From: Eledone cirrhosa
Taxonomy: Eukaryota
Direction of reading: 5' to 3'
NCBI GenBank assembly: GCA_964016885.1
Contig: OZ024743.1
Span: 90,830,001 to 90,894,000, forward strand
Length of the DNA: 64,000 nt
Numbering within the stretch: position 1 is the stretch's first letter; every line of letters begins with the position of its first letter. Both the position numbers and the translations under genes were made by a program. The notes beneath the pieces were generated by a model. The model was not told the DNA's origin and made no database searches. It saw only the letters and a list, made by a program, of their open reading frames with translations. Positions 6,360-64,000 of the stretch are shown here, piece after piece.

Positions 6360-6599
6360 TGCGAGAATGAAGGAAATACACAGGCATGGCTTCTATATAT
6401 AATAGTGGCATTAAATCAGAACAATAATAACAATACTCAAATAAATTAGCTAGATAGTAAATAGTTAAAATAATCACAACATCAATCTAAGTAAGAAATA
6501 GAGTATACTGATGACTTTAGCATGTAAAACGAGCTGATACGAAACAGATGTATGAAATTGACATGTAAAAGCTGTCATGGGGTATATTATAGAGTAGAG

Positions 6600-7758
6600 T
6601 AGGAATACAGACAGGGTAGGAGACACCAGACAGAAGAGACAGAGAGGCACCCAAGGCAAGTGCTTCCTTAAAATGCCACACCTGGGCGAGAATACCACCA
6701 ACGCTATCCGCAAGGCTATACGGAGGGAGGGCCTCGAGATCGACCTGGCCCACTTGAGCCCCTCCCTGCGAATATGCCTCTCCAAGAAACCCGACAAATC
6801 AACTGACGCGTGCTCCCTCAGAGACTGCCCGATGCGCCATGCGAACTGTTGCCTACGCACATACGTCGTGTATAAGATATAATGTAACAAGTGCAACCAA
6901 TACTATATAGGTAGCACAATCCGGCCGCTGCACATCCGGATCAAGGAGCACACTAACACCAGGGCCTCGTCTTTCCGGAAACACATAGCCAAATGCGGAA
7001 ACAGAGACGGAAGGCCCATTGTCACAATTCTAGCGACAGAAAGAAACGTCGGCACATTACGTATCAAGGAAGCACTTTGGATCAAACGCCTAGGGCCACA
7101 ATTAAACAACCGATCCGAGAGAAGCGAAATGAGGTGGTTGGTTTAAGTAAACAAACGATGCAGCAACACACGCACACACATACACAAGCGAGACAGCAAC
7201 ACACGCACACACACAGTAGCATTCCACCACACGAACATACTACACTGCCAATACAGAGGAACAAGGCAACAACACACGCACAGACACACACACAGTAACA
7301 TTCACCAAACAGGCAGATAATACTATGGACTGACAGCTAGCGCCATCCCACTCCCACAATTGAAAGAACTATTTCGGCCGCCGTCCTCTGCTTAACCGAC
7401 CCCATTTCACGTGCACGCGCGCTCTGCTGAATACCTCAGATATTCAAAACAACGAACAGCGGATGACACGTTTCGCACCTTTCCTACAGACACCCCCCCT
7501 CCCCTCGGAAAAACCCCAGTTGATGGATGTGAATCCGAAATATATAGGGACAATTAAATCTCTCCCAAGGTAACTCTATCTCGTGTTATTTTTTTTATTT
7601 TTATCCTTTACGCTCTTTCCTACATTCTTCTACACGCTACAGTCTTCTACACGCCATGCATCTCAACGTACACCCACTTACATCTCTCTCTCCACGACCG
7701 GATCTTGTTACCCGGAGATTTACCCATCTGCATTGTCGAGGCTTCCAAACGACTTAAA
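6600..7758 (+). mobile_element. 5'-truncated Penelope-like element (GIY-YIG endonuclease and 3' UTR)
   Basis: LKMPHLGENTTNAIRKAIRREGL...VVYKI*CNKCNQYYIGSTIRPLHIRIKEH. A degenerate hammerhead lies near 7514-7550 and the element ends at (TA)n. Confidence 0.85.
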
Positions 7759-7934
7759 GATATATATATATATATATTGGAATAAATGCTCTGAAATAGC
7801 GATATATATGTGAATATAGACATAGAATATTCGAAAATATTCTGTATGTTTATAATAAACATTTTGAAGACCTAATCGCTATAGAATAGAATACGTCACG
7901 TATTACAATTAGATTCTCGATAAAAGCAAGGGAA

Positions 7935-7977
7935 GTAATCTACGCGTTTCATTCTTGTTAGAAATCATCAGGACTAC
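7935..7977 (-). ncRNA. Minimal type I hammerhead (also at 8245-8287 and 8555-8597)
   Basis: Reverse complement of the motif at 9115-9157. Confidence 0.85.
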
Positions 7978-9114
7978 ATATCCAGTGCTTTTATCGAGAA
8001 TGACACAGCTAGAGACTTATAGAATACTTAGCTGTGTACAGGAACTGGTTTGAAAGAGCGGTTGCCGGTCCGGCAGAAATTAGAAATTGGAATAAATGCT
8101 CTGAAATAGCGATATATATGTGAATATAGACATAGAATATTCGAAAATATTCTGTATGTTTATAATAAACATTTTGAAGACCTAATCGCTATAGAATAGA
8201 ATACGTCACGTATTACAATTAGATTCTCGATAAAAGCAAGGGAAGTAATCTACGCGTTTCATTCTTGTTAGAAATCATCAGGACTACATATCCAGTGCTT
8301 TTATCGAGAATGACACAGCTAGAGACTTATAGAATACTTAGCTGTGTACAGGAACTGGTTTGAAAGAGCGGTTGCCGGTCCGGCAGAAATTAGAAATTGG
8401 AATAAATGCTCTGAAATAGCGATATATATGTGAATATAGACATAGAATATTCGAAAATATTCTGTATGTTTATAATAAACATTTTGAAGACCTAATCGCT
8501 ATAGAATAGAATACGTCACGTATTACAATTAGATTCTCGATAAAAGCAAGGGAAGTAATCTACGCGTTTCATTCTTGTTAGAAATCATCAGGACTACATA
8601 TCCAGTGCTTTTATCGAGAATGACACAGCTAGAGACTTATAGAATACTTAGCTGTGTACAGGAACTGGTTTGAAAGAGCGGTTGCCGGTCCGGCAGAAAT
8701 TAGAAATTGGAATAAATGCTCTGAAATAGCGATATATATGTGAATATAGACATAGAATATTCGAAAATATTCTGTATGTTTATAATAAACATTTTGAAGA
8801 CCTAATCGCTATAGAATAGAATACGTCACGTATTACAATTAGATTCTCGATAAAAGCAAGGGAAGTAATCTAATTGTAATACGTGACGTATTCTATTCTA
8901 TAGCGATTAGGTCTTCAAAATGTTTATTATAAACATACAGAATATTTTCGAATATTCTATGTCTATATTCACATATATATCGCTATTTCAGAGCATTTAT
9001 TCCAATTTCTAATTTCTGCCGGACCGGCAACCGCTCTTTCAAACCAGTTCCTGTACACAGCTAAGTATTCTATAAGTCTCTAGCTGTGTCATTCTCGATA
9101 AAAGCACTGGATAT

Positions 9115-9157
9115 GTAGTCCTGATGATTTCTAACAAGAATGAAACGCGTAGATTAC
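9115..9157 (+). ncRNA. Minimal type I hammerhead (also at 9425-9467, 9735-9777, 10045-10087)
   Basis: gtagtc-CTGATGA-tttctaacaagaat-GAAA-cgcg-TA-gattac. Stem III is palindromic and stem I is extended by a 16-bp helix (attctcgataaaagca/tgcttttatcgagaat). Confidence 0.85.
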
Positions 9158-10207
9158 TTCCCTTGCTTTTATCGAGAATCTAATTGTAATACGTGACGTA
9201 TTCTATTCTATAGCGATTAGGTCTTCAAAATGTTTATTATAAACATACAGAATATTTTCGAATATTCTATGTCTATATTCACATATATATCGCTATTTCA
9301 GAGCATTTATTCCAATTTCTAATTTCTGCCGGACCGGCAACCGCTCTTTCAAACCAGTTCCTGTACACAGCTAAGTATTCTATAAGTCTCTAGCTGTGTC
9401 ATTCTCGATAAAAGCACTGGATATGTAGTCCTGATGATTTCTAACAAGAATGAAACGCGTAGATTACTTCCCTTGCTTTTATCGAGAATCTAATTGTAAT
9501 ACGTGACGTATTCTATTCTATAGCGATTAGGTCTTCAAAATGTTTATTATAAACATACAGAATATTTTCGAATATTCTATGTCTATATTCACATATATAT
9601 CGCTATTTCAGAGCATTTATTCCAATTTCTAATTTCTGCCGGACCGGCAACCGCTCTTTCAAACCAGTTCCTGTACACAGCTAAGTATTCTATAAGTCTC
9701 TAGCTGTGTCATTCTCGATAAAAGCACTGGATATGTAGTCCTGATGATTTCTAACAAGAATGAAACGCGTAGATTACTTCCCTTGCTTTTATCGAGAATC
9801 TAATTGTAATACGTGACGTATTCTATTCTATAGCGATTAGGTCTTCAAAATGTTTATTATAAACATACAGAATATTTTCGAATATTCTATGTCTATATTC
9901 ACATATATATCGCTATTTCAGAGCATTTATTCCAATTTCTAATTTCTGCCGGACCGGCAACCGCTCTTTCAAACCAGTTCCTGTACACAGCTAAGTATTC
10001 TATAAGTCTCTAGCTGTGTCATTCTCGATAAAAGCACTGGATATGTAGTCCTGATGATTTCTAACAAGAATGAAACGCGTAGATTACTTCCCTTGCTTTT
10101 ATCGAGAATCTAATTGTAATACGTGACGTATTCTATTCTATAGCGATTAGGTCTTCAAAATGTTTATTATAAACATACAGAATATTTTCGAATATTCTAT
10201 GTCTATA

Positions 10208-10244
<37 letters not shown>

Positions 10245-10310
10245 GTTATTCCGGGTTGAATCGGAGGTAACCACAGTAAGTAAGGTACTCAATACATAGC
10301 AGAGTATAAA

Positions 10311-10433
10311 AGTTTTAATATAGATGAGATTCTACAGGACTAGAACTGTTTCATTCATTAGAAATCATCAGGAATCCTGATGATTTCTAATGAATGAAAC
10401 AGTTCTAGTCCTGTAGAATCTCATCTATATTAA

Positions 10434-10437
<4 letters not shown>
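10311..10437. repeat. Fold-back palindrome centred on a hammerhead core (element 10244-10437)
   Basis: Arms of about 62 bp surround caggaatcctg. CTGATGA...GAAAC is present on both strands and the element is flanked by (TA)n. Confidence 0.85.
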
Positions 10438-10490
<53 letters not shown>

Positions 10491-10745: not shown

Positions 10746-10869
10746 TTTTCCAAATCTACTAGACATAAATCCGTATAGATGTAGATATATCACCCTCTGC
10801 CCAGTGAATGAATCAAGCCGTTAAAATGACCCACACACTTATTAGACCGTTAGAAAAAGCGGGAATTAT

Positions 10870-13010
10870 AGACTCGCTGATATTTCAGGCCCCGACAAAC
10901 AACACACCTGATGCAAAACACCTCGTCACAGACTTGACTGGATCCGTCTCCCGAGAGGAATTAGACCTCCTCAGCCTGGGTCCCAAGTTCATATTGAAAC
11001 AGCGACTGGACGACAAATTATGGCTCGACATAGAAACGAATTTCTGACGGGCTGCCTACCAACTAAAACGGATATCGACTCTCGGTAACAACACCACGGA
11101 ATCTAACACACCCAGATTCCCGATATACCAACTGGATCGCCCACTCTGTCCAGCGTCTGCCAACCGCGAGCTTGAAGAAAAACTCTCGAGGCTAAAACAT
11201 TCCGTATTTAACATCTTACGGAAACAGAATAAGATAGTCCCAAACCTCTCCAGGACACAAGAACTCTCCCTGAAGAACCTGCGGAATAGGGAACTTATAT
11301 ACTTACCATCCGACAAAGGTAAAGAGTTTTGCGTCATCTCTCAAGCCACATACAACAACCTAGCCTTTGAACACCTAAGCGACAACGAACTATATACAGA
11401 GATCCCGGACATGACTGCAGTCCAGATCGAAAAACAGGCCAACTCCATCTGGTTCGACATCTGTAGGAGAAGACAACTCCCAAATAAAGTTAAGTTCAAC
11501 TACACCACTAGAAATAGCAGACTGCCCACTTTCTATCACCTCATCAAGACTCACAAGAATAGTATTAAGACACAAATAAGACCCATCGTCTCTAGCATAG
11601 ATGGACCCCTATACAAAATCTCCTGGCTCCTCTCCCAGGTCCTCAAGCCTCTACTCTCCACCTTTCCCGGGCATGTCAGTAGCTCCAACGAGGTCATACG
11701 TAGACTACACCAACTCCAGCCAGAACAACTTAAACTAAATAGATACGCCTTTAGCCTCTACACTACAGTCCCCGCTCATCCAGCTGTCGATTTATTGACA
11801 GACTGCGTGGTCGTAGAGGACATCCACTGCTACGGCCTCCATCTGACGGACATACACCAGCTTTTGTCCTTCACAGTGGACACCACGTACTTCACCTTCC
11901 ACCACCACACATACAGACAGACAACAGGATTACCCATGGGATCCAGCCTATCGGGCCTGCTGGCCATCACCTATATGAACCAGCTAGAATGCCGAGCCCT
12001 CAACACCTGCCATTCCCATACCTTCTTCACCCGATATGTAGATGACATACTCATCCTTACATCATCCCGTGAGGAGGCGGATAAAATATACACGACATTC
12101 TCCAGCATGGACGTCAGTATAAAGTTCAGCATGAAACACCCGATGACCGCGGATCCCTATACCTACTGGACTTCCAACTCAAGGTAACAGAGGAAGGCAA
12201 CATCCACACCTGCTTCTATAAAAAAGCCGCTAGCAGGGACCTGTTCGTACATTTCAGATCGGCCCTCCCAGCCGGCGCTAAGTTCGGATACATAAAGAAC
12301 GAACTAACACGTATCTGGAACAAATGCACCGACGCAAGAGACCGAGACACACACACCACACATTTCTTGGAAGTACTCAAACTGAACGGATACCCGACGT
12401 CCATCACGAACCGTACCAGAAAGAACAGAGGACACCACACCCGAGGCACTAACACCTGCTTCCTGAAGCTCCCACACTTCAGTGACGAAACAACAACAGC
12501 CATCCGCAGAGCTATCAGACGAGAGGGACTAGATATCCAACTAGCCGACTCAGGACCTTTTCTACGCGGACAGCTAACCCAAAGACACTCCACATGACAG
12601 CCGCTGCAGGCTAGCGAACTACCCCATCAACGACACAGACCTATGCCACTAGGTTTACGTCATATACAGATTAGAGTGCGACAAATGCAGCAATTTCTAC
12701 GTAGGTAGCACCACCAGACCATTTCACATAAGAATAAAAGAACACCTCAATACTAACGCTACCTCATTTAAGAAACACCTAGTGAAATGCAACAACACCG
12801 ACAAAAACATAATAGTTAGGATAGAAGCTAAGGAAAGAAACCTCGGCAATCTTAGAATTAAGGAAGCACTGATTATAGACAAAACACAACCACCAATCAA
12901 TAACAGACTAGAACTCAACACCCAATGTTTAACATGATAGAGCACCTAGCCCCACACTTACACCCCTTCTCACACTCACACGCACACGCACACACACGCA
13001 CACGCACACG

Positions 13011-13594: not shown

Positions 13595-16500
13595 GGAAAA
13601 ATTTGAACAGGGACAAAACAGAGAGGCAGTACAACAAATGTTTATTAATTTCACGCTCTGGAGAGTGGGGTGTTGGTGGGGGACGACGTTTCGGGCATAA
13701 GCCCTTCCTCAGGTGAGAAGTGTGTGGGAACAGAGTTCAAAGGGTGTGTAGGGGCGTGGTGGAGAGACATATAGCGAAAGGAAACGGTGCGAATGAAAAA
13801 ATAAAAAATAAAGATAAAAATAAAAATAAAGCATGATCAAAATACAAGGAATGAGATAAATTTAAAAATAAAGGCATGATCAAAATAAACAGAAATTAAA
13901 AGGGGGGGGTAAACAGGTGGTGGAAGGGTGTGGGGTGTGTAGGGGTGGTGGCGGGTGGAGTGGGGAGAGGGAGACGGGGTGTCCGAGCGGGGAGGGCTGA
14001 AGGTGGTGTGTGTAGGTGTGCGTGTGTGTGTGTGTGTGTGTATGTGAAAGTAAGGGTTGGGGGAAGAACGGGGTTGCATGTTCAGGAAGAGGTGTGTGTG
14101 GGGGGGGGATCGGAGTGTCTGTGCGTGTGTGGATAGAGGGGTGGGGGGAGAGGAATCAGGAGGCTGAGGGTGTAAATATGTGGTGGAAAGCACGTGTGTG
14201 TGGGGTTTAAGCGTGTTGTGGGTGTGGGTGGCGTGTGGGGGAAAAAAAATTTTGGGGGTGTGTGTGTGGGTGAGTTATATAGGTGATTACGTAAGAAGAT
14301 GGTTGAAAAGTTGGTAAATTCCGAAGATGTTTAGTGGATTGGTTGTAGGTCAATTTCTGCGTGTGGGTATTCCATGAAGCGGTGGTCGGAAGAGGAGAGA
14401 TGTGGGGTGCGCGCGCAACAGGAAGTGGTCAGCAGTGGGAGTGCTGTGGTCTGTTAGTGCTGGGAGGTGGTCAGAGGGCATAGCAGCAGTCGGTGGAATG
14501 GTAAGGGGGCGAGGATGGGTAGGTGTGAAAGTTGGAGTGAGGAGGGTGTGTGTGTGTGTGTGTGTATTAGTAGGGGTGTTAGTGGGATGAGTGAGTGTGG
14601 AGCGAGGGTGTGGGTGGAGCGGGGAGAGAAGGGTGTGTGTGGTTCTATGGAGGGAGTGTGGTGTACTGGTGTGTGTGTAGTTTGATGAAGAGGTGTTAGT
14701 GGGTGTTAGTATACGGGAGGTGGGGAAGGGTTGAATGCAGGTGTGAGTGGGGGTTAGTGGTGGTAGGGTGTGTAGAGTTGGTGGTGTACGAGGGTGTGTG
14801 GGTACGTGTGCGTGGGGTTGGGGGGTGTTAGTAATGTTAGTTGCGTGTGGGGTGGGTGGTGTAAGTGGGTGCGTGTGTTCGTGTGCTTGGGGTTAGGGGG
14901 TGTTAGTGAGGTTAGTTGCGGGGTGTGGGATGGAGGTGTGGGGGTGAGAATGTGGGGGTGAGGGTTAGTGGTGGTAGTAGGGTGTGTGTTTAGTGTGAGC
15001 GCGTGTATATATGTGCCGGTGGGTGTGTGCGTGTGATAAGGAGGGAGGAGGAGGAGAAGAGGGGAGGGAAGGGATGTTAGTATGTTAGTTGGGGAAGGGT
15101 TGTCAGATGAGGGGTGGAGTGGAGGTGTTAGTATTGTTAGTTGTGGGGTGGGCGGTGAAAAGGAGGGGTGTGTTAGTGGTGTTAGTGGGGGATAAGTGTT
15201 GGGGGGGGGGGTCGAAGGCTAAAGGAATAACGGTGGGGAGTTTAGGCTGGGGGGAGTGTGGGTCTGTAAGATGAAGATAGTTCGTTGTTCGACCGTAAGG
15301 TGATTGGCGGGTGTTCCGTGGCACTGGAGTAGGCCACAGACTGTGAGATGGCGTGCGGAATGTCCAGGGCCACCAAAGTGGCGGGCGATGGGGGAACTGC
15401 CCCCGAGACGAATATCCCGGAGGTGCTCCGTGACTCGGTCCGCCAGGCGACGTCCCATCTGTCCGACATAAGTCGTAGACTAGGTTGGAGGAGGTGCAGC
15501 GGAAGGCATGCCGGACCGACAGAGAGTGGCCGTTGGGACCCTGGAAGGTGGTGGTGTTGGTGATGTGGGGACAGGTGTTGCAGCGGGGCCTAGAACAGGG
15601 AAAGGAACCGGGGGGGGGGGGAACAGAGCGTGGGTTGGGGGTAGGGAGCTGTGGACGAGGAGGGTGCGGAGATTGCGTGCGATTTGAAGGAGGGGAGTGG
15701 TGGGGTTGGGAAGATGTGGGAGGTGGAGGGGTCGGACTGGAGGCGTCGGAAGAGGCGGCGGATGGTGCGGTGGAGGGGTAAGGTGGAGGGGTGGTAGGTG
15801 ATGGGGAAGGGGAGACGGTGGGTGGGTGTGCGGTGGCGTGGGGTGAGGGTGGTGGAGCGGGTGAGAGCGGTGTAGACGAGAGAGGGGGGGGGGGAACCTC
15901 TGCGGATGAAATGGCTGACTAGGGAAAGGGCCTGGGACTCGAAGTCAGCATCACGGCTACAGAGGCGGCAGATCCTGAGAAGTTGGGAGTAGGGAATGGA
16001 GTGTTTAGTGTGGGTGGGGTGGGAAGAGGTGAAGTCGAGGTAAGAGTGGGAGTCGGTGGGTTTGAAGAAGGCGGAGGTGACGAGGGAGTGGTGGGAGGGG
16101 TCGAAGGCGACGGAGATGTCTAAGAAGTGGACGTGGGTGGTGGAGATAGAGGTGGTGAAGTGGAGGGAGGGGTGGAAGGAGCAGAAGAAGGAGAGAAAGG
16201 AGTCGAGCTGTACTCGGGTGAGGGTCGTGGCTCCGATACAGTCGTCAATGTAACGACCGTACAGTTCGGGCGTGGGGCCGGTGTACTGGGCAAAGATTTG
16301 GGCCTCAACATGGCCAACAAAAAGGTTGGCATAGTTCGGGCCCATTCTTGTGCCCATGGCTACCCCCGTGACCTGTTGGTAAAACTCACCCGAGAAGGAG
16401 AAACAATTTAGGGTGAGGACCAGCTCGGCGAGGCGAAGGAGGGTGGGGGTGGAGGGAATGGGGGAGGGGCGAAGGTCGAGGTAGTGTTTGAGGGCGCGAA

Positions 16501-17955
16501 GGCCGTCGGCGTGGGGGATGACTGTATAGAGGGACTTGATGTCTAGGGTGAAGAGGAAGGGCTGTGGGCCGGGTAGGTGAAGGAGTCGAAAAGGCGCAGG
16601 GCGTGGTTGGTGTCGGAGATGTGGGAGGGGAGGGTGGTGACAAGGGGGGCGAGGAGGGAGTCGAGAAAGGCGGAGATGAGTTCGGTGGGGCAGTTGCAAG
16701 CGGAGACGATGGGGCGGTCGGGGTTGTCGGGTTTGTGGAGTTTGGGGAGGAAGTAGATGGTGGGGGTGCGGGTGGTGCGGACGATGAGGTGGGAAGCGGT
16801 GGGAAGCGGTGGGGGGAGGAAGGAGGAGGCGATAAGGTCTTTGATGGTGGAGGAGACTTGTTGTTGGTAGAGGGGGGTGGGATCCGAGGGTAGAGGGTGG
16901 TAAAAGAGGGGGTTACAGAGCTGCCTGAGGGCTTCGGCCGTGTAGAGGTCCGCGCGCCATACCACTACGGCGCCTCCCTTGTCCGCCGGTTTGATGACGA
17001 TGTCATCTCGGCTACGAGGAGTTCGCCCCGTGAGATATTGTGCCGTTTGGAACGGTGGCGGAAGTCGAAACGATTTACTGCGCTACGGCTGGCATCGACG
17101 AAGGCGTCCAGGGTGCTAAATTGCCCTGGGGCCGGCGTCCAAGAAGATGGTAGTCGGCCCAGGGCGAGAAACGGGTCTGGGGCGTCCGGAGCCGGTGGCG
17201 TTCGGCCGAAATGTGCCTGTAGCTTAGTGCGTCGCACGAATCGCTCGACTTCCGTTCGGGTGCGGAACTCGTCGCTGTGCGGAGTGTGGGGTATGAAGCG
17301 AAGGCCTCTACTAAGGAGTGAGCGCTCAGGTGCGGAGAGGGGGGAGGTCAGGGGGTATGGTGACAACAAGGGGTGGGGTTTGGGTGTTTGGGGGGAAGGG
17401 AGGGTGTGGGTCGAGGGAGAGGTGGAGAGTGGTGGGCGTATGGGGATGGGCGGGTGGTGGTGGATGGGGGGGGGAGTGAGTGTAGCTTGCGGGCTTTGGT
17501 GGAGCTGAGGAACGAGAAGAGGTTGTGGTTGAGATTTTGGATGAAGGAGAGGATGGCTTGCGCGAGGAGGGGGTGGCAGGTGGAGTTAAGGCGGAGGAGG
17601 GTGGGGGTCAGTTGGTGGTCAAGTTGGCGGAGGGTGGAACGGGAGGCGCGGATGGAGTTGCGCATCAGGAGGCGTGAGGATCGGGTGAGGATACGTTGCG
17701 TGGAGGGGGAAGCGGCGGGGGAGGGGTGAAAGTGTAGACGGAAGCCGAGGGGGATAAGGTGGAGGCGGAGGCAGTGGCTGAGGAAATGGATGTGGCTGGA
17801 GTGCCGGGTTTTGGCGAAGAGAAGGTAGGAGAGTTGAAGGGCAAAGGGGAGATAGCAGGGTGGGAGGAGGGGGTGAGGAAAAGTTTGAGGCGATTATGTA
17901 GTTGGTGGAGAAAGGATCTCAGGTTGGGCATGATGGGCGTTGGGTGAAAGCAGGG
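13595..17955 (-). mobile_element. Near full-length Penelope-like element, Neptune-like, frameshifted
   Basis: LLSRGLRFIP, YFLPKLHKPDNPDRPIVS, LDIKSLYT, GVAMGTRMGPNYAN, RYIDD, FKPTDSHSYL, RCNTCPHI linker, YVGQMGRRLADRVTEH. It has a long AC-rich 3' UTR and (TA)n on both sides. Confidence 0.93.
13681..13716 (-). ncRNA. Minimal hammerhead in the PLE 3' terminus
   Basis: ac-CTGAGGA-agggcttatgccc-GAAA-cg-TC-gt; stem I is weak. Confidence 0.65.
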
Positions 17956-18069: not shown

Positions 18070-18535
18070 GGAAAGTTATATTTAAATTGTTGGGTTACAA
18101 CGAGTAAATATTTATAACTGATATAAAAGCACTCAACAAGTATTTGGAGTATATTTACGATATTAAATAAATGGAAATTATATTTATAAAACCATATTTA
18201 TTTCATTATATATATTTCAGGGATATCATATTAAAAATATGTTATGCCTTCTTCAGACAAAATACAATATAGACAGTCTTATAAATAAATAGATTCGACA
18301 TACCTTTCAACATCGACTTGCATTTGAAAAGTTGATTTGGCAGATCACTGCCAAATCAACTTTTCAAATGCAAGTCGATGTTGAAAGGTATGTCGAATCT
18401 ATTTATTTATAAGACTGTCTATATTGTATTTTGTCTGAAGAAGGCATAACATATTTTTAATATGATATCCCTGAAATATATATAATGAAATAAATATGGT
18501 TTTATAAATATAATTTCCATTTATTTAATATCGTA
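18070..18535. mobile_element. PLE 3'-end fragment with fold-back (inverted repeat 18156-18535)
   Basis: Arms of about 188 bp with loop ATCA at about 18344-18347. Homologous to 22680-22872 and flanked by (TA)n. Confidence 0.88.
18427..18492 (+). ncRNA. Hammerhead ribozyme (mirror copy at 18199-18264, minus strand)
   Basis: tattttgt-CTGAAGA-agg..catatt/aatatg..cct-GAAA-tatata-TA-atgaaata. Confidence 0.8.
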
Positions 18536-18551
18536 TATAAATATATATATA

Positions 18552-20104: not shown

Positions 20105-22869
20105 ATCTAATCACCCCAGATCTGTTAAAAATACTATAGTGAACTCTGTTCAAGAACGTATCTCAAGAATTTCATCTAATAAAAATATTTTCGACGAAAA
20201 AGCGCAGTATTACAATGAAGCGTTAGCTAGAGCAGGATATAGTGATAAAATTAAGTACATCGATAATAATAGGCAAACTAACCAAAATAATAACAATTTT
20301 AATTACGGTAACAACTTTAACAACTATAATAGAAAACATTACAATAATTCCAAAAGCCAGAAAAGAAATAGAACTAGAAATATAATATGGTTTGCCCCCC
20401 TTTCTCACTAAATATTAAAACCCACATTGCTAAACTATTTTTTAATGCTCTTGACAAACGCTTCCCTAGAACACATAAATATCACTCAATTTTTAATAGA
20501 CATACTATAAAATTAACTTACTCGTCCACCAAAAATTTAGCACAAAATATTAACAGAATAAATAATAGGAATCTAAAACCTAGCCAAAATACCGATAATA
20601 GCCTAAACAATATTCAATTAAACAACTGTAACTGTAGAAATAAATCTAAATGTCCGTTAAATAACAATTGCTTAGTTAAAAATATAATATACAATTGTAA
20701 TGTTAAAACTAACTTAAATTCTTTTAACTATGTTGGTTCCACCTCGACAGAATTTAAACTTCGCTATAATAATCATAAGAATTCTTTCACAGATCCAAAC
20801 AAAAAATCTTCAACTTCACTATCAGGCTTATTCTGGCAACTTAAACATGATAACGTTGGATATTCGATGTTTTGGAATATTGTCTCAAGAGGGATTCCTT
20901 TTAATTCCTCATCTGAGACATGTGACCTCTGTGTGGAGGAGATATTCTTTATATTAAAATCTAAAAATTCCCTTAATTTAAGGAGCAATTTATTCAGTTG
21001 CTGCAGACATAGATTGAACTCAACGTTTAAATATAAATATAAATTTAAAATGTAGTATAATTAGTTAAGATATTTAATTAATGTATGAAACCTGACGATA
21101 AATCTTTCGATTCCTTCAACTTTTCTTTTAAACCTTCTTCATAAATATATACTAATGATGTAATTAAACTACCCTAAAATGTAGATGCTCCCAATCTATT
21201 GAATACATTTTAAGCTAGATAAACTTCTATACTAAATATAAGAGCATCTGTAGAACAACAGGGTCTCCTAAATCTTTTAAATGATTTCTGCTAAATAAGT
21301 TTTGTTGAATAATTTTTGGTTTTTTTGTTTGCTTTTTGATTCTGATTGCTTCTAATGAACTTGACAATATATTGTCAGATAAATTGGAAGGGTAGATTTC
21401 TGTGGGTGATATGGGGGGCATACTGTGTTTTTTATGGCCCGAGATACTCTGGTGAGTGATGAAAATATTTTTAACGTTTTGATATCTCTGTGCTGATATA
21501 TTAATATCTGGTTGTCTCTGTACAAAGGCCATATGTATTAATATGAATATGGAATGATTACAGAGTATATTTTATTTTATCTGTTTATTTTATCTGTCCA
21601 TGTACATATATGTGCGCACGCATATATATATATATGTATGTGTGGCTATGGTTCTGGATATGTTACAGATATGCATAATATTCTATACATGAACGATAAT
21701 CATGTATGTGAGGGCAGGAATATTAATATATATTTTTATGCATATATATATATAATAAAATCTTTTATAACACAAGGGAAAATTTTTTCTGTGAAACAAG
21801 AAATTACAGAGTTGATCACGTAAGATCACGGGTATGTCTATAGTATCAACTAGAACTTGAGATGACCTTCTCTTTTTCTCTTTCTTTCCTTTTCCGGAAA
21901 GTACATATATACTTATGTATTTCCGTATTTTTTGAAGTTTTATCTCAGTTTTTGGTACACCGACCTAAGAATTTTTAAACTAAACATATGGTCATTATTT
22001 TTCACACATTATATATCTACGTCTCATTCATGAATATTGATATTTACATTATAATACCCAATTCACATGAATTGATAATTCAAATTGATAGGACATAACG
22101 TAAACATGTAAATCTATCATCCTTCCCTCTAGATATAGCTCTTTCTTCTCCTCCCTCTTTATACATGATGAAATTTAAGTATCGGTTATTTTAACTTTGC
22201 CTCTCGAGCTTCTCTCTTGTTTTCTCTCTTACTTCTCTCCTATTTCTCTCACCTCCCCATATATAATTATTATTATTTGATCTACCTCTTTCCCCCCCCC
22301 CCCCCCCCCCCACCTCTATCTTTCTCTATCTCTCTGTTTTCTCTTTATTTTTTATTTTTTATTTCTCTCCGTCTCCTTAACACTATAACTAAATAATTAC
22401 AGTACTCCCTCCCTCCTAAATATCTCAATTTGTATGATGAATTGTTATTATTCATCTGTTGCCTCAGCTGCATCTCTTTTTTCACCTCCTCACTATTTAT
22501 CTCTCCCCTATCTCTCTCTATTTCTCTCTGTTTTTCTTTACATACATTTCTTCTTTTTCTCCGTCTTTCTTTTTAACTGTGCTTAACACTAAATATTTAT
22601 AAACATCTCACTACCAAACCAACTTCTTACATGAAAGTTGATCAATATTTATGGTACGTCAAAATTATTTATAAAACTGCTTATATATTGTATTTTATCT
22701 GAAGAAGGCATGCCATATTTGTAATATGGTATCCCCGAAATATGTATAATGAAATAAATATAGTTTCCATTTGTTTAATATCGTATATCTACTCCAAAAC
22801 TTGTTGAGTGCTTTATATCAGTTATAAAATATTTACTTGTTGTAACCCAACAATTTTAAATAAAACTTT

Positions 22870-28948: not shown

Positions 28949-29204
28949 CAGAATTTTCCGGCCTATAAAGTGCACTTAAAATACCTAAAGTTCATAAAAA
29001 AACAGCTCTGCGCTCTATACTACGGTGAGCCTTATGTATAAATAATAATATGGTAATCAATCACGGCTCTAACAGAAGTAATAGATCTAGACTAAAAGTA
29101 AAGAAGATAGCATTTTCCTGCTTGGCCTTACACGCCGTTGCGCGGACGTGATTTTAAATGATACGCCTTATATCCCGGTGAGCCTTATAGAGCGGAAAAT
29201 ACGG
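28949..29204. mobile_element. Tc1/mariner-pogo-type MITE
   Basis: Imperfect TIRs cagaattttccggcctataa / ttatagagcggaaaatacgg, with TA on both sides. Confidence 0.7.
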
Positions 29205-30668
29205 TATCTATTGAAAAAGAATACGAATTCATGACCAAGGTGTGACAAAATTGGCGTCTATACAGTGCCTGAAACAAACTTGTCCAAAACCCTGGGATCT
29301 TTCTCGTTAAGTATCCACCCAAAAGGAACCGTTTCTTAGTTACAAAAAATAACCAAAATGAATAGTAGCTATATTTCTGACATATCATGCCAAAAAGAAC
29401 AATATATTCAAAAAATGTTCTAAAGTACATTCAATCTCTCTTTTTGACCGATGTCTTAATAAGCAAATTATCGATTTTTTATTAGCTGTCAGTGTTTATC
29501 TGCATGCAGGTGTGTACGTGTGCGCAATCAATTGCACTGCATGCATATGGTCTATGACAACTAATTAAAAAATTAAAGAACAATAGCAATTTGCAAATAC
29601 GCTCATAACATTTAGTCGTAAACAGAACAAAAAATGCCATTAGAGGTGGGCTAATAATGGAAAAGACACAAACCCTGGTGAACTTACGTTTAAAAACTCG
29701 AAAACTTACTCACTTCCTGTGCAAAAGGCTGTGACAGTAGTGTTATGAATTAAGTAATTTTTAGAACCTTTTGTTTAAAAAAGGAAAAAATTGGTACGGA
29801 CGTAACATTTTTTACAACTTTGTATATGTCCAATACAACTTGGTCAAAGTATTATTTAGTAAATTCTTTTCAAAAAGCATGATTATTTAAGACTCTTTGA
29901 AAATTTACTCACCGCTTTTACCTTTTGGCATCACAAAATACACCATTAAATTTGGTTTCCTTTCAGATAGGGATAATACTGTATTTGCACTTGAATAAGG
30001 GGGAATATGAAAAGTTTCACGCTAAGATGTCGACAATCCCCTAGTCTCAATGGATTTTTAACTTTAAGGAAGGCGAAAAATGAATTAAATTTAACTGAAA
30101 TGGCATGCAAGTAGTCTAAATAAAGAAGCACTAACTCACCGATAAGTAAGTGGGCAAATTCTGTAAAGGTCCGTTTAGTGAGACGGCCGGATTTATTGTT
30201 GTTCACAAAAAGCGGATACACACAAAGAGAAAAAGGCGGTTCGCACGTGCGTGCATACCTGTTTGTGTATCTATCGTTGAGAAAACATACTGCTCGTGGT
30301 ATAGACAGACCGTCCAATTAATAACGCGCGTGAGTCACAGTGTGTGCGTGCTTATATGGGCATATGAAATTGATTTTGTTTGCGCCAGGAGTAAACTAAA
30401 ATTGCTTGTGTTCGAATACATACACATTAAATTTCATTGAAATCGAAAGATTTTTGAAAAAAATATGAAAAACATTCTGTCATATATTTTGTTGACTATA
30501 CAATTATTTAAGAATTAAGAATTCTACTCAAAGAACCCTGAATATCTGTTTGTAAAGCCTTCCATTTCCCATAAAGAAAGGCGTAGATTTGCATATTTCC
30601 ACAATATTGCGCCATTGATAATTAAATTATGAATAATTGTCTGCCTTAACTTTTAAAAGTCTTTTAAC

Positions 30669-30735
30669 AGTACGGCTGTTACTTAAATATAAGTATATAT
30701 ACGTACATACATATATGTATACATACGTACAGTAG

Positions 30736-30773
<38 letters not shown>

Positions 30774-31187
30774 CACATATATATATGTACGTATGGATTC
30801 ACCGAACTTTTATTATAATGCTCGGTGTGTTTGTAAACAAACATCCCGAAATAAGCCGTACAGTGTCTAGCAACCATCGTTGCTCATTTGTTCAACACTG
30901 ACAAAGGAAGGTATACGTTGCTGACGATAGCTAATAAGCTTGAAACTAGTACAGCGTTCCTTTGTCAGTGTTAAACAAATGAGCAACGATGGTTGCTAGA
31001 CACTGTACGGCTTAATTCGGGATGTTTGTTTACAAACACACCGAGCATTATAATAAAAGTTCGGTGAATCCATACGTACATATATATATGTGTACATGTA
31101 TATATATATATATATACATACTACTGTACGTATGTATACATATATGTATGTACGTATATATACTTATATTTAAGTAACAGCCGTACT
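30669..31187. repeat. 519-bp fold-back element with arms of about 235 bp
   Basis: 30669-30909 is the near-perfect reverse complement of 30957-31187. A related arm lies at about 62262-62463. Confidence 0.92.
30915..30957 (+). ncRNA. Minimal type I hammerhead forming the loop of the fold-back
   Basis: acgttg-CTGACGA-t-agct aata agct-t-GAAA-ctag-TA-cagcgt. Confidence 0.85.
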
Positions 31188-31560
31188 AAGAGTGAGAAAT
31201 GAAATTTCGTTTCATTTTTTCCGTATATATATACACACATATACATATATACACGTATATACATCTTTGCACATTTTTAGATGGCCATTGACTGTTATGA
31301 GTTCTTCCACCCTTTGTCAGGATTTCTTTTTTGTCCTGCGGGGTTTCCAAAATCACCCTCCTCACCAAGTAAACTTGGTGGGGTTGCTGGTTTAGTCACC
31401 GATGACCCGACCATGCGACAGGTTGTACTGGTTACATGTTACCAGTAGCACTCATGAGTGACCCGACAAATATACATACACACACATACGCGCGCGCGCG
31501 CGCACACATATATGTATATATATTTATATATATATATGTATAAATATATATATATATATA

Positions 31561-41524: not shown

Positions 41525-41719
41525 AAGGTCCAGTAATAATAGAAGTTTCAAAACAACAGCGTCCAAGAGTATTTGACCAGTGACAGTGCATTGTTAGTGC
41601 TTTTGTATCCTCCAGAGTTAAATTTACTTCGCTACTCTTAAGGTTGTTTGACAGATATGGTTCAATCTGGAGTTTATCTATAATTTCCTTTTGTTGATCT
41701 GTCACATCACCAGCTTTGG
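41525..41719 (-). CDS. Gene A exon 2
   Basis: Long pyrimidine tract, ttttcag|CC ... CCT T|gtatgt, 195 nt, phase 1-1. Encodes ...MHCHWSNTLGRCCFETSIITGP, matching gene B exon 2 (CSWRKNIGDCC). Confidence 0.82.
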
Positions 41720-43130: not shown

Positions 43131-43472
43131 ATAGAATAGCTTTCACCGTATTTTTGACTAAAGAAATTTTAGCCTGATAATGGGGTTTAGAACCCTCAGA
43201 TAAGTGGAAAAAGATGAGTATTGACGTACATGGGAGTCGAACCCACATCTTTGGTTATCCAGACCACTCGCTAAGAATGTAGCTTCTAATTTGAATGGAA
43301 GGAGATGGGTGATGTGTTGGTGTAATGGTAGCACAGTGGTCTGGAAAACCAAAGATGTCGGTTCGACTCCCATGTACGTCAATACTCATCTTTTCCCATT
43401 TATCTGAGGGTTCTAAACCCCATTATCAGGCTAAAATTTCTTTAGTAAAAAATACGGTGAAAGCTATTCTAT
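43131..43472. repeat. Fold-back element (arms about 138 bp) containing a tRNA-like head
   Basis: 43131-43268 is the reverse complement of 43335-43472 with several mismatches; (TA)n on both sides. Confidence 0.85.
43311..43381 (+). pseudogene. tRNA-like sequence (anticodon position GGA, short variable loop); SINE head or tRNA pseudogene
   Basis: Cloverleaf: GATGTGT/GTACGTC acceptor stem, GTGT-AATGGTA-GCAC D arm, TGGT-CTGGAAA-ACCA anticodon arm, GGTTCGACTCC T loop. Confidence 0.6.
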
Positions 43473-61843: not shown

Positions 61844-62515
61844 TATATACATATATATATATTTATTAAAATAACAGATTAAAGTTTAAGCAAAGAATCG
61901 TTGCTTTCACCCTTAACGGGATCTTCTGAAACTAACAAAGTCAATCTGTAAACGCAGAAGTGGATATTTTAAAAAACGTTGCAACCGGAGGAAGACAGGA
62001 AGACGATACTTTGGTCCGTTTTAGGTATGTTTTCCTGCTTGGTACGGGTATGTTCTTTGTAGAAATATTCAGATGTTGTTTCTGCATGATGAATATAAGT
62101 CAATAGAGTGCTCAACCGAGGGAGCCAAATAGTAATAATAATAAATTTGAAGACTAAAATCCAAAGAGGCCTCGATAAGGATAAATATATATCAAATATA
62201 TAAGAACCGTAGAGCAAATATTTATTATTATTACTATATATTATTATTATTACTATATATATATATAAGTATGTATAAGTATGTATACGTACATACATAT
62301 ATGTGTACAGACGCACAGTAGTATGTATATATATACATACATGCACACATATATATATATATATATATATGTACATATTGGTTTATCGAACATTTATTAT
62401 AATGTTCGGTTTGTTTGTAAACAAACAGCCCGAATTACGCCGTACAGTGCTCGGCAACCATCGCATTCTTATGCATATTAACGGTGAGCAACCTAATTTG
62501 CATATCGAGTGAGTT

Positions 62516-64000
62516 AGTCGCCTGGTTTGGATGGTCTGCCCTATGAACTTTACGTACAGATGCCAGACTTGTTCGGAGGCCTCTTGGCGGACGCCTACTG
62601 CAACTGGCAACAGAACGGGAGAATTCCCAGCTCTGTGAGCCGAAGAGCGGTGGCGCTGCTGAGAAAGGATCCGAACAAGGGGGATAACATAGATAATTTC
62701 AGGCCCATAACTCTGCTAAACACAGAGTTCAAGATTTTGGGCAAGGTGCTAGCAAAGAGGTTGGCGCTTGTTGTTGGTGGTCTGGTGGGAGAGGCGCAGA
62801 CATGCGCCATTCCCGACAGATCCATCCACGACAATCTCCACCTCATGCGATACATCGTGGAGAGGGTAGCTAGGGAACCTAGCACGGGTGGGTCCTTGAT
62901 CAATTTAGATCAGTCGAAGGCTTTCGATAGGGTCGACCATCGTTACCTAGCGGCAGTCCTGAGGGCGGCTGGCTTTGGGCCCGTCTTCAGAGGCTGGATC
63001 GCTGCCATGCACAGCGACATCTGCTCTGTGGTGAGAGTGAACGGTCACCTTTCGGAACCGTTCAACATTATGCGCTCGGTCCGCCAAGGATGTTCCCTCT
63101 CGTCCCTCTTGTACGTATTGACTCTCGAGTCATTACTGCACAAACTGGAGACGTTGAGGGGGATCCCGCGCGAACTAGGATGCGGAAGATCCGTGTCCGC
63201 ATATGCGGACGATGACACCGTAGTGGTGTCGAACGCCAAACACATCGAGGCGATCGGCACTACACTAAGAGAATACGAAGCGGTGACAGGAGCAATGATC
63301 AACCAGGAAAAGTCAGTGGGCCTGCAGCTCGGCACCCGGAGAGGCAGGTCCATGTCGTCCAACAGCATCGTCGGGCGCTGGACGGACGGACCGGTTAAAT
63401 TGCTAGGGGTCTGGTTCGGTCCGGACCTCCAGACGGACAAAAACTGGGACAAGGTGACGAGCAGGGTGGCTTCTCTCACCCAAAAATGGACGGAGAATAA
63501 GCTATCCCTGAAAGGTCAAGTGGAGGTGGCTAACGAGTACATCGCGTTCGTCATCTACTACCGCCTGACCGTCGTACCTTGTCCTAAGCCCCGCCTGACT
63601 GCGCTGGAGCGTTTGCTCTTTCGCTTTTTGTGGAAGGGACGCGCTCCGATGGTCAGGCGGTCCATCTGCTATCAACACCCGCTACGTGGGGGCTGGGCAT
63701 TCCGTGGCTGATGATGCGCAGACACGCGCTCAGGCTACGAGATCTCCACCTCTTCCTCGACGGTGATCAGGTGTGGTCGCCGTTTGCTAGATGCGTCTTT
63801 CCTCAGCTCGTCTCCTTGACGGAACTGCAGTCCTGGGTCAAGCGAAGACCGAGGGGGAGCGCTTGGAGACTGGAATGTCTTCAGGCGCTCACAGCCCTCG
63901 ACCAATCGGGCAATGTGATCGGTGGAAACTCCACCTTGGCGTTCTATAGAGGATTAGTGGAGGGGAAGAGCGACGACGTACTTGGGGAGACTCGAGGCGT
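62516..64000 (+). mobile_element. 5'-truncated Tx1-type LINE RT region (runs off the window)
   Basis: SPGLDGLPYE, DQSKAFDRVDH, VRQGC, YADD; closely related to ORF2 at 35282-36673. Confidence 0.92.

Follow-up and report, generated by a model that had tools for sequence, protein, structure and literature searches.

A hairpin enclosing a hammerhead motif in Eledone cirrhosa, very probably an inverted copy of a high-copy tandem repeat

The hairpin at 30669-31187 of the 64,000-nucleotide stretch of Eledone cirrhosa DNA analysed here (the window; all positions are counted from its first letter unless given in unit numbering) is very probably an inverted, partly deleted copy of a high-copy hammerhead tandem repeat of ~430 bases, likely inserted as RNA into a TA run by a Penelope-type reverse transcriptase. 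On this view we are dealing with a routine by-product and not with a novel DNA transposon that bears a ribozyme; within its family the hairpin is a rare junction variant of the usual inverted insertion.

Table 1. Parts of the hairpin, its flanks and a second family copy in the window. Unit numbering takes as position 1 the first base 3' of the predicted hammerhead cut.
Positions	Strand	Feature	Evidence
29000..30668	.	Unrelated young repeat, its last ~300 or more bases missing at 30668	92-97% identity to 7/7 fetched copies
30669..30909	-	Left arm, inverted copy of unit 6-236; its outer end marks a breakpoint and no terminus of the family	Alignment, family comparison
30905..30909	.	Inversion junction, where the inverted arm and the native sequence upstream (unit 378-382) match over 5 nt	Family comparison
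30910..30914	+	Native bulge, from stem I to the imperfect stem I extension	Family comparison
30915..30957	+	Type I hammerhead motif	Letters against hammerhead consensus; family majority at all positions
30952..31228	+	Right part, unit 1-277; the left arm matches 30957-31187 only	Family comparison
31173..31228	+	Tail of ~56 nt, bounded by the family's two fixed 3' ends (unit 221, 277)	Family comparison
31223..31265	.	TA-rich run 3' of the tail; usual target of the family	Letters, other loci
62274..62525	-	Older family copy, unit 36-217 joined to 292-350, hammerhead deleted	Alignment, family comparison

The hairpin and its hammerhead motif

The sequence-only reading had described a giant hairpin whose near-perfect arms surround ~47 nt that are filled by a minimal hammerhead, and both features are borne out. 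The arms, of 241 and 231 nt (30669-30909 against 30957-31187), align with 229 identities, two mismatches and one 10-nt gap within a TA run and enclose a loop of 47 nt, with a predicted stability of -391 kcal/mol across 519 nt. Read in unit numbering, the hairpin runs from minus-strand 6-236 through plus-strand 378-424 to plus-strand 1-277 and on into a TA-rich run. It lacks unit 278-377, carries one hammerhead and amounts to less than one unit, and no open reading frame of 70 codons or more inside 30669-31170 passed the filter; this copy is probably passive. Four minority variants, present at frequencies of 4/79, 8/73, 8/78 and 14/79 among copies, are common to both arms and occur all together in only 2 of 195 other copies, so that the two arms derive from one template or source.

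Hammerhead ribozymes share the motifs CUGANGA and GAAA, NUH before the cut and three stems, I to III. Set against this consensus, the letters of the plus strand give a type I motif in which stem I pairs 30915-20 with 30952-57 (6 bp), the CUGANGA-type core lies at 30921-27 and GAAA at 30942-45, stem II pairs 30929-31 with 30938-40 (3 bp, with U-U at the base) and stem III is of 1-2 bp with the palindromic loop CUAG; the predicted cut falls after 30951. The Rfam hammerhead models gave no match at E up to 1 across the window, nor up to 10 in 30905-30965, and were likewise blind to the other hammerhead-like motifs in the window. Rfam microRNA matches, which were below gathering scores and due to the hairpin or to TA runs, were rejected.

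The core in the window has the family majority base at every position, and the core is intact in 66 and broken in 17 of 83 copies that were picked by core likeness. Across 182 copies the base before the cut is A in 160, T in 20, C in 1 and G in 1, so that 181 fit the NUH rule, and the stem I pair 30918/30954 is U-G in 96, G-U in 41, A-U in 28, C-G in 6, U-A in 2 and unpaired in 9, that is, paired in 173 with five pair types. A covariation run on 30 hand-picked sequences, out of 122 distinct ones from related copies selected by core likeness, found 96.4% of cells paired, with none of 500 shuffles as high. The covariation score was above all 500 shuffles, but only one pair had changed on both sides, a value reached by 487 of the 500. 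Covariation is confined to one stem I pair, stems II and III hardly varying. These patterns suggest selection on source copies.

With stem III open, the ribozyme fold lies 2.0 kcal/mol above the best local fold, the figure for a native copy being 1.4; even in the native unit an imperfect stem encloses the hammerhead. The window motif resembles that of axolotl HHR_Amex1 in its weak helix III and palindromic tetraloop and that of HHR_Amex2 in the U-U at the helix II base. In the available text of PMC7229834, axolotl hammerheads with a weak helix III or the helix II U-U are described as cleaving weakly as monomers and more strongly as dimers, and the available text of PMC11167929 reports one Penelope hammerhead that cuts with protein only, uncut RNA being the main insertion substrate. 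In a plus-strand read-through transcript, cutting by the ribozyme in the window would probably be weak without dimerisation or the help of a protein.

The repeat family and its insertion ends

A search of the 3.0-Gb genome with one arm and the loop returned 504 candidates, of which 40 were scored. In loci from this same genome the family unit is 424-433 nt long and is arranged in head-to-tail arrays with one hammerhead per unit. The family is dispersed and of high copy number, with no match to a Penelope-like protein within units. A 24-mer of the hammerhead core has 12,306 exact genome matches, against 0 for the control, which settles that the hammerhead is more than the one-off chimera that had been envisaged as a possibility. 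The hammerhead, with unit sequence close to it, is also present in contigs from four of six public sequencing runs, which are coded as four organisms; these contigs show presence only, and one of the runs may stem from the source of the window itself. At G000:C1:51773369-51792154 family units recur every 428 nt, or at multiples of this distance, over ~19 kb, a satellite-like expansion.

Two further observations concern the unit itself. Matches in unit 278-377 are most often to one octamer-like 8-mer, with 45 hits against 4 for the variant that comes next. Newt satellite 2 has an snRNA-type promoter, and by this analogy the conserved octamer-like motif may be part of a promoter of the family. 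In one subfamily (L106-L135) the cut is preceded by GUU, stem I shows U-A or G-U/A-U changes and stem II has C-A at its base. A base other than A precedes unit position 1 in 1,947 genome matches, mostly T among the first 100 listed; all 30 such matches that were fetched are hammerhead variants, mostly of the GUU subfamily, and none is a junction, so that cDNAs with an end at the cut site were not in evidence in this test, which is a weak one.

A diverged copy of the arm near 62.3 kb, reported with a different inner sequence, is half upheld: 62274-62463 is indeed a copy (164 identities over 189 aligned positions), and the inner sequence is not different, 62468-62525 being unit 292-350 of the same family. 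This copy is followed, at 62518, by a reverse transcriptase frame. Short sequences in 61860-62260 are common to the flanks of L015, L055 and other loci, beside the same TA runs; from these sequences a second family appears to use the same TA-run targets.

The family has two fixed ends. Where the end is tailed (unit 277), a TA run comes next in 46 cases against 10 others; the tail-less end at unit 221 gave 59 calls into a TA run, with 60 calls unclassified. Among 115 loci scanned, 27 have TA-run ends on both strands, and 24 of the 27 have exactly one 221 end and one 277 end, the remaining three being L085 (3+3), L087 (2+1) and L111 (two 221 ends). The left end in the window, at unit 236, matches neither fixed end.

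These ends bear on the proposal that the hairpin is a MITE, mobile as DNA and bounded by 235-bp terminal inverted repeats and a TA duplication, which has taken up a hammerhead. MITEs of the Tc1/mariner type are short and non-coding, with long inverted arms and a TA duplication. The hairpin resembles them in being a short non-coding element with long inverted arms; it differs in having no target duplication or fixed arm-end termini, and in carrying tandem units and a hammerhead rather than transposase-binding ends. The long near-perfect arms, the TA near each end and a central junction common to five copies would fit a MITE. On the right, however, family sequence continues ~40 nt past the supposed end, to ~31228, into a (TA)n run; the paired stretch extends 2 nt beyond the supposed TA ends, and the right TA (31184-85) falls within the unit. 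On the left, the supposed end cuts another repeat, all seven fetched copies of which go on into sequence that is absent from the window, and the missing part was not found on the right. Since the neighbouring repeat is broken off at 30668, position 30669 is a breakpoint and the arm length an accident, and with differing flanks and the left end a breakpoint within another repeat there is no target duplication. This neighbour, which we take to resemble Helentron-type non-autonomous elements, ends in a CAAA-repeat and a TA run in two of its fetched copies.

The genome-wide counts point the same way as the ends. The fold-back junction of the window has five exact matches, the window included, against 5,476 for the native sequence just before the hammerhead; the native, non-hairpin junction is thus ~1,000 times commoner. 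As a count of one exact junction sequence, five is a minimum for stem I fold-backs. Flanks, outer ends and arm lengths differ among the five fold-back copies, each of which lies at a place of its own. A MITE is therefore almost certainly the wrong explanation, and the TA ends fail as MITE termini. Between the two origins first offered, a MITE-ribozyme hybrid or a Penelope-like fold-back product, the latter is favoured by the inversions, the (TA)n runs and the fixed ends; the former falls with its missing target-site duplication, its internal ends and the imbalance in junctions.

Inverted insertions and their origin

Head-to-head inversion was found in 15 of 23 distinct insertions, with junction positions scattered over the unit. 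The sample consisted of the first 30 native-junction matches minus 7 overlapping loci, on one contig and with an exact native junction required; L051 was read from its twin locus L013, and L056 is a complex double inversion. Within its family the hairpin is thus not the 'extreme' fold-back product that it had been called. Its junction is a 5-nt match of unit 378-382 to the complement of 6-10, inside the native imperfect stem I extension; a join within this extension explains why the hammerhead forms the loop. Of the other copies with the same fold-back junction, three (L002, L003 and L005) end regularly, at 221 and 277 in TA runs, and the fourth (L004) is a long inverted array with its right end beyond the fetched stretch. 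Regular ends or a long array in all four imply that the hairpin is not itself a travelling unit.

Other palindromes occur in the window as well. An inverted array of 310-nt units of another family, at 7771-10220, has three hammerhead-like cores on the minus strand and four on the plus strand, with arms 100% complementary over 1,075 nt and TA runs at both ends; going by its sequence, it would represent the same anatomy in a second retrozyme family. At 10300-10440 a short palindrome has a hammerhead-like core on either side of its centre at ~10374. At 18152-18539, 192-nt arms, 99% complementary and 4 nt apart, each contain a loose hammerhead-like motif, and a related motif lies at 22699.

It is improbable that the palindrome arose only after insertion, with stem I folding back during DNA repair or replication, or with the imperfect native arms converting each other. 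The imperfect stem that the native unit provides and the rearrangement breakpoint at the left end would both suit such an origin. Against it stand the regular 221/277 ends in TA runs of L002, L003 and L005, three of the four other junction copies, and the frequency of inversions throughout the family. The mirror-image junction, moreover, has 0 exact genome matches against 5, although these are small numbers.

Insertion of family RNA in inverted form thus remains the preferred reading, and its steps may be pictured as follows. A Penelope-type enzyme would nick a TA run, and priming on family RNA would take place at unit 277 on one DNA strand and at unit 221 on the other; two cDNAs, or one cDNA snapped back, would then join via a short match. 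A join inside the closing stem would turn the hammerhead into the loop and the imperfect native stem into a perfect one. A later deletion, which we infer, no empty allele having been seen, likely took the outer left arm together with the end of the neighbouring repeat. Two-strand priming at fixed sites with short-match joining is the most likely course, snap-back of one cDNA being the alternative. As the first cDNA crossed the cut site, the template RNA would have been uncut or re-ligated.

On a wider reading the find is the family and not this hairpin: its inverted insertions, which nearly always pair a tail-less with a tailed end, would be genomic evidence that a Penelope enzyme integrates retrozymes by priming once on each DNA strand, at two fixed sites of an RNA that is uncut or circular, and not by generic reverse transcription of rolling-circle products. 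This is a serious possibility that falls a little short of probable. If true, counts over the thousands of young junctions could put the unexplained tandem and inverted structure of Penelope insertions to the test.

A tblastn search with eight Penelope-like fragments of the window against 105 loci (L001-L105) yielded neighbours only, and no autonomous element sharing the unit or a pseudo-LTR. At L023 and L080 a 5'-truncated unit stands head to head with fragments of two different Penelope-like families, the truncated units (L080:1500-4400 and L023:1-1500) being joined to the 3' part of autonomous Penelope-like elements. These possible chimeric insertions could point to the mobilising enzyme, as a lead only.

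Host context, known relatives and significance

The window is dense in transposon fragments, reverse transcriptase and GIY-YIG frames included. Four fragments are Penelope-like (10808-12934, 6598-7143 and 20378-21052 on the plus strand and 15222-17082 on the minus strand); Pfam confirmed reverse transcriptase and GIY-YIG in 10808-12934 and gave a sub-threshold GIY-YIG match in 6598-7143. A tRNA match above the Rfam gathering score at 43311-43381 (+) could reflect either a tRNA gene or a repeat derived from tRNA. The hairpin had been placed in an intron of a host gene, gene A, and neither the gene nor the intron was confirmed: a Pfam search for a host gene among 80 non-transposon frames gave one sub-threshold match only, and a rough exon scan, which exons of fewer than 52 codons could escape, gave one candidate outside transposons (41525-41719, minus strand, with splice-site-like ends), for which no homolog was found.

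Whether long double-stranded RNA released from this copy by self-cleavage could serve the host, for small RNAs or for editing, has to be weighed against this background. The hairpin is very stable, its hammerhead fold lies, like that of a native copy, no more than 2 kcal/mol from the best local fold and its core is that of the family majority, all of which would suit such a use. The copy is young, however, so that selection is not required to account for its intact core; the family has many inverted insertions like it, and palindromes of other hammerhead families lie in the same window. The duplex is, besides, independent of cleavage, since it would form in a transcript of either strand without it, and the ribozyme could act in a plus-strand transcript only. 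With the host gene unconfirmed as well, host use is very improbable.

The repeat family is a new family of the non-LTR retrozyme (non-autonomous Penelope-like) kind; the kind itself is known, and kin may stand in preprint supplements. In the available text of PMC7229834 and bioRxiv 10.64898/2026.07.22.740005, animal non-LTR retrozymes are, as here, non-coding, low in GC and present in thousands of copies, as tandem repeats whose units measure a few hundred bases and each contain a type I hammerhead. [quoted passage not shown] Inverted insertions and two fixed ends are not described in the available text of either source. With one hammerhead and less than one unit, the window copy also falls short of the 'active' dimer as it appears in the available part of the preprint.

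For Penelope-like elements, the accessible portion of PMC8557442 describes (TA)n targets, a tail confined to one end and a 5'-truncated copy in inverted orientation, and that of PMC11167929 a tail bounded by two reverse transcriptase start sites. As far as these portions go, the insertions described here share with them partial tandems, a head-to-head inverted copy, a one-sided tail, two start sites, AT-rich or (TA)n targets and a hammerhead upstream of the start sites. They differ in the length of the tail (~56 nt against 30-40 bp in PMC8557442), in a unit without an open reading frame and in a cut site 221-277 nt before the start sites. No published account of this family or of a hammerhead MITE was found in the literature on hammerheads, Penelope, MITEs and cephalopods, as judged from listings.

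The locus is of little consequence in itself, being a rare junction form of a widespread retroposed repeat. The value of the family is modest and lies in joining the literatures on retrozymes and on the anatomy of Penelope insertions through countable young copies, the pairing of 221 and 277 ends being the one result worth genome-wide follow-up. For annotation a caution applies, as folded-back retrozyme copies mimic MITEs or microRNA precursors (hence the sub-threshold Rfam microRNA matches). For the genome that carries it, the family is a large potential source of hairpins.
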